64,000 bases of DNA, taken from NCBI GenBank assembly GCA_964549615.1, contig CAZJVP010000020.1, forward strand, positions 160,001-224,000. The letters run 5' to 3'. The position numbers were made by a program, and so were the translations under genes. The stretch is from an uncultured Thermococci archaeon. Lineage in GTDB: Archaea > CAYQAE01 > CAYVLA01. The notes under the pieces were generated by a model. It ran no database searches and had not been told where the DNA came from. It saw nothing but the letters and a program-made list of their open reading frames with translations. Shown here piece after piece: positions 41,428-47,139 of this stretch; positions within the stretch are counted from its first letter, which is position 1, and each line of letters opens with the position of its first letter.

Positions 41428-42381
41428 ATGCCAGCCATCAGCATCAACCGGCTTTCCATGAGGACCGTCCAGACCCTCATCGACTCCCCCGAGATGTTCA
41501 ATGTCCAGATCACAAGACTATCGGACGGGTCGACCGTCATAGACGCCGGGATCGAAGCGGAGGGAGGCTACGAAGCCGGAAGGCTTGTGAGCGAGATCTG
41601 CATGGGGGGACTGGGTTCGGTTCAATTTTCCTTCACTGGGCCGATTGCCATCGAGTGCCCCTGGGTGGTCGTCTTCACCGATCATCCTCTCCTGTCCTGC
41701 ATGCTGTCGCAGATGGCCGGATGGTCGATCCGGACGAAGGGCTTCAGGGCGATGGGATCGGGGCCAGCAAGGGCTCTGGCCCAGGCGGAGGAGATCTACA
41801 GGCAATACCCCTACACAGACGGTCACTCCGAGGCCGTCATAGTCCTGGAGACATCCACCAAACCAGGGGAAACCGCCTCCGCTTGGATATCCGAGAGGTG
41901 CGGAGTAAGTCCCAAGAACCTCTACATGGTTGGGGCGCGAACCGCCAGCCTTGCGGGAACGGTGCAGGTATGCGCCCGAGTGGTCGAGACGGGAATGCAC
42001 AAGATGCACACCCTCGGAATCGATCTCGCGGGCATCCTAGCTGGACGGGGGACATGCCCGGTCCCACCCATCCTCCGGGACGACCTTGTCATGATGGGCC
42101 GGACCAACGATGCGATCCTTTACGGCGGCCGGGCAGACTACATCTTCGCTGACGCCTCCCGGTCACTTGCGCACCTGCAGTCCCTGCCGTCCTCGTCATC
42201 CTCTGACTACGGCAGACCTTTCGTCGAACTGCTCAAAGCTGCAGGATCAGATTTCTACAAGATCGATCCAGCGCTGTTCAGCCCGGCCGTCATGGGCATG
42301 GAGAACATGAAGTCTGGAAAATGCCTAAGCGCCGGAAGAATGGACATCGAGGTCCTCAAGAGGTCCTTCGGGCTGCCCTAG
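41428..42381 (+). CDS. mch: Methenyltetrahydromethanopterin cyclohydrolase
   Basis: EICMGGL, SQMAGW, MGSGPARAL, TASLAGTVQVCARVVE, MGRTNDAILYGG, FYKIDPALFSPA. Confidence 0.94.
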   Translation: MPAISINRLSMRTVQTLIDSPEMFNVQITRLSDGSTVIDAGIEAEGGYEAGRLVSEICMGGLGSVQFSFTGPIAIECPWVVVFTDHPLLSCMLSQMAGWSIRTKGFRAMGSGPARALAQAEEIYRQYPYTDGHSEAVIVLETSTKPGETASAWISERCGVSPKNLYMVGARTASLAGTVQVCARVVETGMHKMHTLGIDLAGILAGRGTCPVPPILRDDLVMMGRTNDAILYGGRADYIFADASRSLAHLQSLPSSSSSDYGRPFVELLKAAGSDFYKIDPALFSPAVMGMENMKSGKCLSAGRMDIEVLKRSFGLP

Positions 42382-44018
42382 CCCAATGCCTTCTCAAGTC
42401 GGTCTGCCACCGTATCAGGTCCGAGTGCACAAACCAAAGGGCCCATTCTGGGTCCGTGGTCGGTGCCCAGCAGCAGCCTGTAAAGGATCTGGAAGAGCCT
42501 GGAAGGGCTCACCCCATGAAGCTCGGCTGCGGAGAACACCGACGACTGGATCGCATCAGGACCGGGACTGGTCTTGATGACGCGAGCTAGGTGGCGAAGG
42601 CTCGCCTTCTCCGGGTCGGTCAGCTTGGCAATGAATGCCCTGTCGGGCTCGCCGGCCGGCCGCAGGGCGAGCTCGGGCACGAACATGCGAACCCAGTTCC
42701 GGGCGTAGATCAACCTCTGCCTGATCTGCTCAACAGCCCTCTTCGAAGGACGGCCCTTGATCAGCTCGGTCCTCCGCAGTGCCTTGATCGCCTCTGACAT
42801 GGACTCCTCTGGATCGTAGACTTGGGCGATGAGCGAAGCGAGGGTCAGGTCGATGGTCGCCGGCCTCTCTTTCGGGGGACTTCGGAGCTGGGAGATGCGG
42901 TAAAGCCTGATCATGTGCGACCTCTCTCTTTCGTTCGAGGCATCGGCCTTGCCGTAGTAGACGTCCGCGTGTCCGTCGTAGTCGGCATAGAGCCTCGGCA
43001 ACTCCCGCCAGGAGAAGCTCCTGGTCTTCATCAGCTTCTTGTTGTACAGGAACCTGAGAAGCTCAGCCGGCGCGACCTTCAACCAGTCCGCCGGGTAAAC
43101 GACGTTGCCCAAGGATGCGCTCATCTTCCTGCCGTCTATCAGAAGATGCTCGTAGAAGAAAGGCGTCGGCATGGGGTAGTCAAAGATGCGCTCAGCTATC
43201 TCCCCGTTCACCCACCATGCACTCGTCGGAACCTCATACTCCTTTCCCCCGCCCTCGCAGCTCACCTTCCAAAGCGCCCATTCGCTCGCCCACTCCCCTT
43301 TCCAGAGGATCTTGCCCTTGTCGCGCAACGCATCCGCCCACCCCACGTAGCCGCATCCTTTGGCAACCGTCTTCTCGAACTGGTAGTCGCGGCATTCGTA
43401 CCTGATCCGCGAGCCGTCGATCTCCAAGACCTGAGGCGTTATCACCTTGCCGCACTCGGCACAGATGGGCTTCCATGGCGTCCACCCCGAAGAGAGGCTC
43501 GAATCCCTGTATTTCTCGAGGATCTCCCTGACCCGATCCCGATTGTCAAGGAGCTTCTTGATGTACCTGCGGAAGCTACCCCTGTCGTATTCCTGCGTGG
43601 TCGAATACCGACGGGCCTTGTTGACCACGAAGTCCTCCATCACTTCGAGGTACTCCGCCCGGTGGTGTTCCGCGTAGGAATCGTGACAGCCGGAGGGATC
43701 TGGAACCTCCGTCACCGGCTTTCCCAGGTACTCCTCGTATTCCTTGGGGACGCCTTCGGGGATGCTCCTAAGGGGATCCATATCCTCGCCGACCCAGATC
43801 ATGCGGGCCTTGGCACCGGCGTCGCGAAGCGCGGTCACGATGGAGTCCGCCCGGATGGTATCGCTCAACCGGCCTATGTGCAGGACGCCCGAAAGGGATG
43901 CCGAGGTCTTCACGACGAAGCATGTCCTCTTGGGAACGGGCTTGTCGACGAAGTGGTACTTCTTCCTCTCGCAGATCTCCCTTGCCTTCTGGTCGGCCCA
44001 GAACAGAGGCTCCGTCAT
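42378..44018 (-). CDS. lysS: Lysine--tRNA ligase, class I
   Basis: FWAD, SGVLHIG (HIGH-like), CAECG, KMSASLGN, GPRMG. Confidence 0.95.
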   Translation of the reverse strand: MTEPLFWADQKAREICERKKYHFVDKPVPKRTCFVVKTSASLSGVLHIGRLSDTIRADSIVTALRDAGAKARMIWVGEDMDPLRSIPEGVPKEYEEYLGKPVTEVPDPSGCHDSYAEHHRAEYLEVMEDFVVNKARRYSTTQEYDRGSFRRYIKKLLDNRDRVREILEKYRDSSLSSGWTPWKPICAECGKVITPQVLEIDGSRIRYECRDYQFEKTVAKGCGYVGWADALRDKGKILWKGEWASEWALWKVSCEGGGKEYEVPTSAWWVNGEIAERIFDYPMPTPFFYEHLLIDGRKMSASLGNVVYPADWLKVAPAELLRFLYNKKLMKTRSFSWRELPRLYADYDGHADVYYGKADASNERERSHMIRLYRISQLRSPPKERPATIDLTLASLIAQVYDPEESMSEAIKALRRTELIKGRPSKRAVEQIRQRLIYARNWVRMFVPELALRPAGEPDRAFIAKLTDPEKASLRHLARVIKTSPGPDAIQSSVFSAAELHGVSPSRLFQILYRLLLGTDHGPRMGPLVCALGPDTVADRLEKALG

Positions 44019-44053
44019 GGATACACCGGAAAAATGAGCCGCGGATTCTAAAA

Positions 44054-44247
44054 TGCCGTTCGCCCCGGCCACGCCGGTGGAGCGGGCTTCGAACCCGCGA
44101 CTTCCGTCTCTTCCGAGACTCCGGATGTCCCAGGGACATGGCCGGAGAACCTACGCTGGGTCCCGTGCCCTTAGGTCACCTATGAGTCCGGCGCGCTCTC
44201 CGGTCGGGCCCCCTCGCGGGCCCGATCACCAGCTGCGCCACCCCGGC
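44054..44247 (-). tRNA. Elongator tRNA-Met(CAT) with four predicted introns (~44198-44226, 44127-44180, ~44102-44118, 44059-44078)
   Basis: Minus strand after removing the inserts: GCCGGGG TG GCGC AGCTGGTGA GCGC G CCGGA CTCATAA TCCGG AGGTC GCGGG TTCGAAG CCCGC TCCCGGC A. All four stems pair; TTTT follows; TATA-like element upstream. Met(e) rather than Ile2 is inferred from resemblance to archaeal elongator Met sequences. Confidence 0.9.
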
Positions 44248-44279
44248 AGTAGATTCGTTCCCAGAATCCTGAAAATGCC

Positions 44280-44291
44280 ATATAAATATAT
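44280..44291. promoter_or_regulatory. TATA element for tRNA-Met (-) and the divergent radical SAM gene (+)
   Basis: ATATAAATATAT, ~35-45 nt upstream of the tRNA 5' end and ~30-40 nt upstream of GTG 44322. Confidence 0.65.
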
Positions 44292-46742: not shown

Positions 46743-46817
46743 AGCGAGGTGGGGCAGCCAGGAGTGCCCGACGGGCTCATAACCCGTAGGTCAGTGGTTC
46801 AAATCCACTCCTCGCTA
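46743..46817 (+). tRNA. Initiator tRNA-Met(CAT), intronless
   Basis: AGCGAGG...CCTCGCT A with A1-U72; anticodon arm ACGGG CTCATAA CCCGT with three G-C pairs; T-arm AGTGG TTCAAAT CCACT; CTTAAG ~25-30 nt upstream. Confidence 0.97.
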
Positions 46818-47139
46818 CTCCTTTCAAGGCGTCCGTCGGTTTTGGGCGTCTGCTGGTGAGGCAGCCGCGCGCTGCGTCCTACGAGGGCATCTTTATTGTC
46901 ATACAGAGTGGTTCGGCCCCTGTCCAGCACTCTCAGTGCCCTGTTCGCCTCAATCGCAGTGAGGCGCGGGTTCAAAGACAGCTACGACGTCAAAGGTTGG
47001 TCGAAAGATCCCTCGGTCTTCGAACCCTACCTCGAAGTCGAAGTCGGGGGAAAGGTTTATCAGAGCAGCGCCTACCCGCAAAGGGGTACTGAGCCAGAGG
47101 GCTCTTCCTCGGGCGGGATGCTCGTTCGGGTGGGATTCG

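Follow-up and report, generated by a model that had tools for sequence, protein, structure and literature searches.

Multi-intron tRNA genes and acceptor-stem introns are already known, and Marck and Grosjean are said to have mentioned introns in the amino-acid arm in 2003. According to the accessible text of PMC4090602, which cites Sugahara 2008, the tRNA genes of the Thermoproteales carry non-canonical and multiple BHB introns, among which one at position 3/4 of the acceptor stem is called an extreme case. In the accessible portions of reviews of 2014 and 2021, no more than three introns per tRNA gene are given. In the available text of a 2026 preprint on Asgard archaea, the majority of tRNA genes contain inserts, as many as five in a single gene; annotators miss many of them, the D-arm is a frequent location, and the acceptor stem contains a few. 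To detect introns close to the 5′ or 3′ end, the program tRNAscan-SE 2.0 lengthens each candidate by 60 nt. Our search of reviews and the literature, with the primary intron catalogues outside its scope, returned no explicit report of a tRNA intron at 68/69.

The stretch of DNA analysed here (64,000 nt, hereafter the window) includes, on the minus strand at 44054..44247, an unannotated gene for elongator tRNA-Met(CAU), which is 194 nt in length and consists of five exons and four introns. We put at about 85% the probability that segment 44078..44059 is a genuine archaeal tRNA intron at 68/69, one of the four in a gene that is apparently the sole elongator tRNA-Met gene of the organism. Comparison with the described systems, as far as the available text of each source extends, revealed that (i) like the Thermoproteales introns, the 68/69 intron is short, builds its BHB with exon bases, shares its gene with several others, is located in the acceptor stem, and needs a non-cloverleaf precursor; unlike the Thermoproteales intron at 3/4, it interrupts the 3′ strand, is followed by a terminal exon of 5 nt, and occurs in a gene with four introns, in a lineage that does not belong to the Thermoproteales; (ii) like the Asgard tRNA genes, this gene is interrupted, is missed by annotators, and has inserts in the D-arm and the acceptor stem, but it comes from a different phylum (the records of its relatives are labelled Candidatus Hadarchaeota), and the available Asgard text names no position in the 3′ acceptor strand; and (iii) as in the split tRNAs of Nanoarchaeum equitans (PMC4090602), complementary flanks outside the mature tRNA would hold the exons and present the BHB to EndA. 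In N. equitans, the flanks of two transcripts pair and their helix lies on the removed side, whereas here a trailer in cis would pair with the T-stem 5′ strand of the exon and extend the outer helix.

The 68/69 intron would extend the tolerated positions of tRNA introns almost to the 3′ end, in an essential and apparently single-copy tRNA, and its host belongs to an uncultured lineage of hot springs that is not among the groups known for intron-rich tRNAs. In archaeal rRNA precursors, BHB motifs are located in long processing stems and are cut by the same endonuclease. The predicted precursor described here likewise places a BHB on a long stem of flanking sequence. Unlike in the rRNA precursors, one strand of this stem is a tRNA exon, which has to refold later, and ligation would rejoin the exons as a tRNA.

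Architecture of the elongator tRNA-Met gene

The gene, the elements next to it and its inserts are the following:

44280..44290, minus strand: TATA-like TATATTTATAT, 33–43 nt upstream of G1, read from the sequence
44241..44247, minus strand: 5′ acceptor strand GCCGGGG, positions 1–7
44198..44226, minus strand: D-loop intron, 29 nt; relaxed HBh′ motif with no outer helix
44127..44180, minus strand: canonical intron at 37/38, 54 nt; central helix CTCA/TGGG and both bulges, inner helix of 1 bp only
44102..44118, minus strand: variable-region intron at about 45/46, 17 nt; hairpin GTCTC/GAGAC
44059..44078, minus strand: intron at 68/69 in the 3′ strand of the acceptor stem, 20 nt
44054..44058, minus strand: exon 5, the 3′ micro-exon CGGCA (C69–A73), 5 nt
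42378..44018, minus strand: gene of class I lysyl-tRNA synthetase (LysRS), which starts 35 nt past the tRNA-Met(CAU) gene

The remaining parts of the tRNA were read from the sequence: the D-stem is GCGC/GCGC; the anticodon stem is CCGGA/TCCGG, with the loop CTCATA..A and the anticodon CAT; the T-arm is GCGGG-TTCGAAG-CCCGC; and the 3′ acceptor strand is split into TCC and CGGC, followed by A73. We number the 3′ end with CCCGC as T-stem positions 61–65, followed by U66 C67 C68 ^ C69 G70 G71 C72 A73, where ^ marks the splice point. Exon 4, which ends in ...CCCGCUCC, is predicted to join directly to CGGCA. The predicted mature tRNA has 74 nt without CCA, which is not encoded. The TATA-like TATATTTATAT is a candidate promoter of the gene and would leave a leader of about 10–14 nt. 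The spacing between the tRNA gene and the LysRS start is 34–36 nt in all 4 orthologs of the locus.

Two registers are candidates for the intron at about 45/46. The best-paired HBh′ register, with a perfect 4-bp central helix and a 4-bp inner helix, leaves a variable loop of 3 nt, and the 17-nt register leaves the usual variable loop of 5 nt, as in the ortholog from the other family (described below), but places a G.A in the central helix. Because all 4 orthologs are identical at 44102–44118, comparison does not decide between these registers. The hairpin loop of this intron varies among the 4 orthologs, and its stem is invariant.

Identity rules separate elongator tRNA-Met from initiator tRNA-Met and tRNA-Ile2. 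The gene has the anticodon CAU, a G1-C72 pair (not A1-U72), A73, and a body unlike that of tRNA-Ile2. Of the other 2 CAU genes of the genome, one is an initiator (A1-U72, GGG/CCC), and the second is Ile2-like and shares its acceptor stem with tRNA-Ile(GAU); therefore, 44054..44247 is the elongator tRNA-Met gene. It appears to be the sole one of the organism, in a gene search by ARAGORN and Rfam that missed about 11 of the expected tRNAs. The gene itself is absent from the ARAGORN output for the window, which contains the initiator tRNA only, and the Rfam tRNA model gave no match to it. The initiator tRNA-Met gene (46743–46818, plus strand) is intronless and is located 2.5 kb from the four-intron elongator gene.

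The 68/69 motif and its conservation

The complete hBHBh′ motif around the 68/69 intron is composed as follows:

44055..44087, minus strand: outer helix G60–C62 with G70–C72; central helix C63–U66 with intron GGCG; bulges CCA and AAC; inner helix CCGGC/GCCGG

The preliminary description had read the same helices, bulges and hairpin on the minus strand, and both the letters and the predicted fold of the isolated 35 nt (44053–44087), (((((((...(((((...)))))))))...))), agree with it. In this fold, the outer helix has 3 bp, the central helix has 4 bp including one G-U, the two bulges have 3 nt each, the inner helix has 5 bp, and the loop has 3 nt; a 4-bp central helix, flanking 3-nt bulges on opposite strands, and outer and inner helices are the geometry of an archaeal BHB tRNA intron. 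A strict BHB scanner independently returned 44078..44059 as a 20-nt intron. The predicted cuts fall after the second base of each 3-nt bulge, i.e., after C68 and before C69, and the splice point is unambiguous: a one-base shift in either direction alters the product. Removal of the 68/69 intron restores a 7-bp acceptor stem and A73, and removal of all 4 introns yields the 74 nt. The stem so regained, in which TCCCGGC-A pairs with 5′ GCCGGGG as had been proposed from the sequence, is the same as that of uninterrupted relatives.

By itself, the BHB motif is no statistical rarity in this GC-rich genome (60% GC), and the case for the intron rests on its position and on comparison. The 35-nt fold is no better than those of shuffled sequences (67 of 200 equal or better, z −0.37). 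Motifs of BHB form with both flanking helices of at least 3 bp occur 29,494 times in the genome, and those with an inner helix of at least 5 bp occur 4,019 times, about one per 1.6 kb of strand. At the 36 tRNA loci, strict BHB motifs number 20 against 15.9 expected; with the tRNA loci unenriched, the strict scan was dropped both as evidence and as an intron census. What goes beyond chance is an excision that exactly restores the stem of compact relatives, together with the pattern of conservation.

GTDB holds 5 genomes of the phylum, of which this genome (G000) and 3 others (G001–G003) form one family, and G004 is the sole genome of the other family. All 4 inserts are present in all 4 genomes of the family, with the 68/69 insert at an unchanged position; these are species-level genomes with 76%–89% identity at the locus. 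Comparison of the 4 loci revealed that (i) at the 3′ end the exon bases are invariant and the loop lengths drift, the 68/69 loop having 3, 4, 4, and at least 8 nt; (ii) the 15 nt from the 3′ arm of the inner helix through A73 (CCGGGGCGAACGGCA) are identical in all 4, and divergence starts past A73; (iii) the closing pair of the 68/69 inner helix reads C-G, U-G, U-A, and U-A; and (iv) of the 12 pairs in the 68/69 BHB, 10 are constant, both bases change in 1, and the remaining one, the outer pair G60-C72, is lost in G002. The D-loop intron has both-sided changes in 6 of 8 inner-helix pairs and in 1 of 4 central-helix pairs. This strong covariation indicates that the inserts of the tRNA-Met(CAU) gene are structured RNA under selection.

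The ortholog in G004 has an uninterrupted 3′ end, CCCGC-CCCCGGC-A, and its only introns are located near 30/31 and at 37/38. The spliced G000 product is identical to the spliced G004 product at 66 of 74 positions, and its spliced D-loop agrees with the compact D-loop of G004. The present data suggest that the 68/69 intron was gained after the split from the family of G004. Five metagenomic archaeal tRNA-Met genes (L131, L164, L179, L219, and L227) share the 5′ strand GCCGGGG, and their 3′ strand is unbroken and has the same final bases; thus, the acceptor stem of the gene at 44054..44247 is identical to that of compact archaeal tRNA-Met genes with canonical introns. The metagenome scan used a T-arm pattern that is too generic and matched at least 119 loci; among the matches listed are a near-identical strain (L208) and 6 archaeal tRNA-Met-like genes, the remainder being unrelated tRNAs. 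Three sequencing runs contain the stretch or a part of it, all of them hot-spring metagenomes and none on record as RNA. Of their DNA contigs, X1 is identical and possibly the source, X3 is a 35-nt piece, and no joints were found; contig X2, from the run of another study, covers all of the stretch unbroken and without gaps and differs at 7 letters, none of them in the 68/69 intron. Taken with the fold and covariation, this comparison supports the proposed intron at 68/69 within a complete, if predicted, BHB.

The 3′ arm of the 68/69 intron carries GCCGGGG, the sequence of tRNA positions 1–7, and the 5′ arm CCGGC is that of positions 68–72. The intron may thus resemble a hairpin-closed copy of the acceptor stem, a possible hint of its origin, with the arm since altered in relatives (CCGGT/ACCGG).

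The intron begins with the decoy CCGGC, which had been suggested to compete for the 5′ end, and the locus could be read with this decoy in the mature stem. On such a reading, no splicing would occur at 68/69; the 3′ strand of the stem would be CC-A-CCGGC, in which the A is bulged, a single base would be left over behind the T-stem, the discriminator would be G, and the 15 nt downstream would be trailer. With the other 3 introns removed and only the 68/69 intron left, the 37 °C minimum-energy fold does pair GCCGGGG with the decoy, as the preliminary description had anticipated, and it contains a bulged A; by contrast, the probability of this pairing is 0.00 in the full precursors with leader and trailer of all 4 orthologs. 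A trailer would also hardly be expected in the 15 nt past the decoy hairpin, which are identical in the 4 genomes up to A73. The decoy ends with T in 3 of the 4 genomes, so that its stem would have G1.U72, and this last base covaries with the other arm of the intron; in G002, where G7 is changed to A, A7 pairs with U66 in the spliced stem only, and the decoy stem would have A7 facing C (A.C) in addition to G1.U. None of the compact relatives compared has such a stem, and we regard its use as very unlikely. The possibility that the locus is a decaying pseudogene, or is mis-assembled or chimeric, with the BHB as a chance fold, is more improbable still: the abundance of BHB-like motifs in the genome and the rejection of the locus by standard tRNA finders would fit it, but the same architecture recurs in 4 species-level genomes, a near-identical metagenome contig (L208) and the unbroken contig X2 contain it, the exons stay invariant while the intron loops drift, and the isoacceptor would otherwise be missing.

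Pairing of the leader and trailer in the precursor

The sequences that flank the tRNA on both sides are complementary to segments within the gene:

44249..44256, minus strand: 5′ leader segment GAATCTAC, which pairs with the 37/38 (anticodon) intron
44147..44154, minus strand: partner of the leader, GTAGGTTC, in the 37/38 intron; the adjoining CCC pairs with G5–G7 of the acceptor strand
44091..44102, minus strand: partner of the trailer block, i.e., the last intron base, G46–C48, the T-stem 5′ strand, and U54–C56
44037..44048, minus strand: 3′ trailer block GAATCCGCGGCT, which is conserved and is the complement of the variable-loop/T-stem 5′ strand
44030..44034, minus strand: T5 run directly past the trailer helix, with a T5–6 run at the same place in all 4 orthologs

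The T5 run at 44030..44034 is likely an archaeal terminator. Since such a run follows the block in all 4 orthologs, the trailer block should be within the primary transcript. The 37/38 intron thus includes antisense both to the leader and to the 5′ acceptor strand.

Both long-range helices were predicted unprompted by RNAalifold on the 4 loci. The trailer helix has 12 bp, with 47 of 48 cells paired, and both-sided changes occur in 3 of the 10 pairs of the leader helix. The trailer helix is limited to one-sided changes because its exon side is invariant, and these changes are transitions that wobble pairing tolerates. In a shuffle test of both helices, 19 of 500 shuffles reached the both-sided changes and paired cells and 13 of 500 reached the covariation score, a support that is modest because the structure was derived from the same alignment.

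In the full precursors of the 4 orthologs at 37 °C, the trailer helix has a probability of 0.88–0.99, and the T-stem, like the decoy, has 0.00. The exact BHB is present in the minimum-energy fold of the full G000 precursor and is highly probable in G001; the full-length folds of G002 and G003 at 37 °C favour a slightly shifted register, with BHB central-helix probabilities of 0.05 and 0.10. In the 77 nt of the G000 3′ domain with the trailer, the BHB stands atop the trailer helix in both the minimum-energy and centroid folds (−36.0 kcal/mol, z −2.95, 0 of 200 shuffles as good). At 70 °C, the BHB with the trailer helix is the minimum-energy fold of the 3′ domain in 3 of the 4 orthologs, and in G002 an alternative is better by 2.4 kcal/mol. 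The BHB excludes the T-arm because it uses the T-stem 3′ strand; without the trailer, the energies of the BHB and T-arm conformers are −16.2 versus −17.3 at 37 °C and −6.4 versus −5.9 at 70 °C. A pairing between the 37/38 and 68/69 introns, which appeared in a 201-nt fold without the trailer, was rejected: by eye it is out of register among the orthologs, and it vanishes once leader and trailer are included in the fold.

What was observed or computed for the 68/69 intron is its motif, the stem regained on excision, the pattern of conservation, and the genes of the enzymes (described below); we infer cleavage by EndA, ligation by RtcB, and their order as follows. In the primary transcript, the T-stem 3′ strand (60–66) and acceptor bases 69–72 would build the hBHBh′ with the intron instead of the cloverleaf. 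EndA would cleave after C68 and before C69, in each case after the second base of a 3-nt bulge, and RtcB would ligate C68 to the 5-nt exon CGGCA. The RNA would then refold to the cloverleaf, tRNase Z and RNase P would trim its ends, and CCA would be added. The chances are about even that the trailer block takes part in this process by pairing with the T-stem 5′ strand, which would free the 3′ strand for the BHB, give it an outer helix of about 18 bp, and keep the micro-exon tethered once cleavage has taken place. Meanwhile, the antisense stretch in the 37/38 intron would hold the leader and the 5′ acceptor strand and block the decoy pairing. If the trailer tether and the 37/38 antisense are read in this way, the 68/69 splice would precede removal of the trailer. 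The preliminary description had placed splicing before 3′ trimming; a conserved trailer helix that carries the BHB strengthens this order, and as an order we still infer it.

We tentatively propose, with somewhat less than even confidence, that the flanking sequence is a cis-encoded splicing scaffold: a non-cloverleaf precursor with built-in antisense in the trailer and the 37/38 intron, in which the BHB is on top of a stem of about 18 bp and the terminal exon remains attached during both cleavage and ligation. The flanking RNA appears arranged so as to keep the tiny last exon in position for splicing. Such a scaffold would fix the order, in that 68/69 would be spliced before the trailer is removed and before the 37/38 splice brings full release, and would explain the persistence of an intron this near the end of a tRNA in a thermophile. 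The leader and trailer helices, which are new here, suggest on the strength of the modelled folds that splicing comes before end trimming. If functional, they would offer a concrete example of precursor architecture that sets the order of splicing and end maturation and would show how a five-base micro-exon can be ligated at high temperature.

It is also possible, if rather doubtful, that the intron is real and the leader and trailer pairings are incidental, with the ends matured first and EndA catching a transient BHB; the block, located 14–25 nt ahead of the LysRS start, would then serve LysRS as promoter, 5′ UTR, or terminator context. The near-constant distance of the LysRS start from the tRNA gene, with a conserved T-run and GGTG ahead of the ATG, favours a role of this kind, but no TATA-like sequence is common to the orthologs at the trailer block, and the conserved segment matches the 12-nt complement exactly, with variable sequence on either side. 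The one-sided, wobble-compatible changes in the trailer are what incidental pairing would leave, and the closeness in energy of the BHB and T-arm conformers even without the trailer makes a transient BHB plausible; without the trailer, however, the 5-nt exon would be held by only 3–4 bp after cleavage. A comparable 17-nt complement at the tRNA-Leu(CAA) gene is unconserved, which likewise favours coincidence. Against coincidence, the G004 ortholog, which is without the 68/69 intron, has no trailer complement in its sequence.

Trailer complements were surveyed at the 36 tRNA loci, of which 32 were usable (3 were without a T-arm seed and 1 was at a contig end). Complements of at least 11 bp occur at 3 of the 32, and the others have 5–9 bp; besides the tRNA-Met gene, 2 Leu genes have T-arm trailer complements, of 11 and 12 bp. 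The gene of tRNA-Leu(CAA) (G000:C47:6200-6350, L235) has, 7 nt past its end, a perfect inverted copy of 17–18 nt of its variable arm, T-stem, and T-loop, and that of tRNA-Leu(UAA) (C30:69043) has the 11-bp complement. The Leu(CAA) complement is absent in all 3 relatives; such complements can therefore arise without function. With 3 of 32 loci only and an unconserved copy at Leu(CAA), a trailer complement as a general tRNA feature was ruled out.

Splicing enzymes and the tRNA gene set

The genome encodes the host machinery for a BHB intron, namely 2 EndA endonucleases and RtcB (a match of 607 bits). The first EndA (403 aa; G000:C90:41769-42002; L022 1195–2406, minus strand) aligns over its full length with that of ARMAN-2 (residues 29–403 with 22–387 of 4FZ2_A, E 2e-73), and from this alignment we assign it to the epsilon2 type, which is the broad-specificity type. 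The second (393 aa; G000:C88:58736-59533; L021 1456–2637, minus strand) is a two-unit enzyme, the best match of which is the catalytic subunit of A. pernix (3P1Z_B, 2.4e-43), and its C-terminal half is crenarchaeal-like. The presence of 2 EndA genes may explain the tolerance of relaxed and oddly placed introns.

An archaeon is expected to have about 46 tRNA genes. Rfam found 35 in this genome, which is 99.5% complete, and about 23 of the 35 exceed compact length, as judged by length and ARAGORN isotype. Several isoacceptors, e.g., Phe, His, and Asn, are absent from the ARAGORN and Rfam output on the genome. Heavy interruption seems to mark this tRNA set, and the lineage is not known for it; the four-intron gene shows why standard tRNA finders leave the set incomplete.

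The Ile2-like tRNA(CAU) gene (G000:C79:44439-44537) and the tRNA-Ile(GAU) gene (G000:C51:38060-38157) have one acceptor stem in common, and each carries an insert of about 22–24 nt in the variable region; the Ile2-like gene encodes its CCA. In G004, ARAGORN labelled the gene L111 (G004:C2:5155-5254) as tRNA-Pyl(cta) with an intron at 35, a label that probably arises from mis-parsing a non-canonical intron in this gene.
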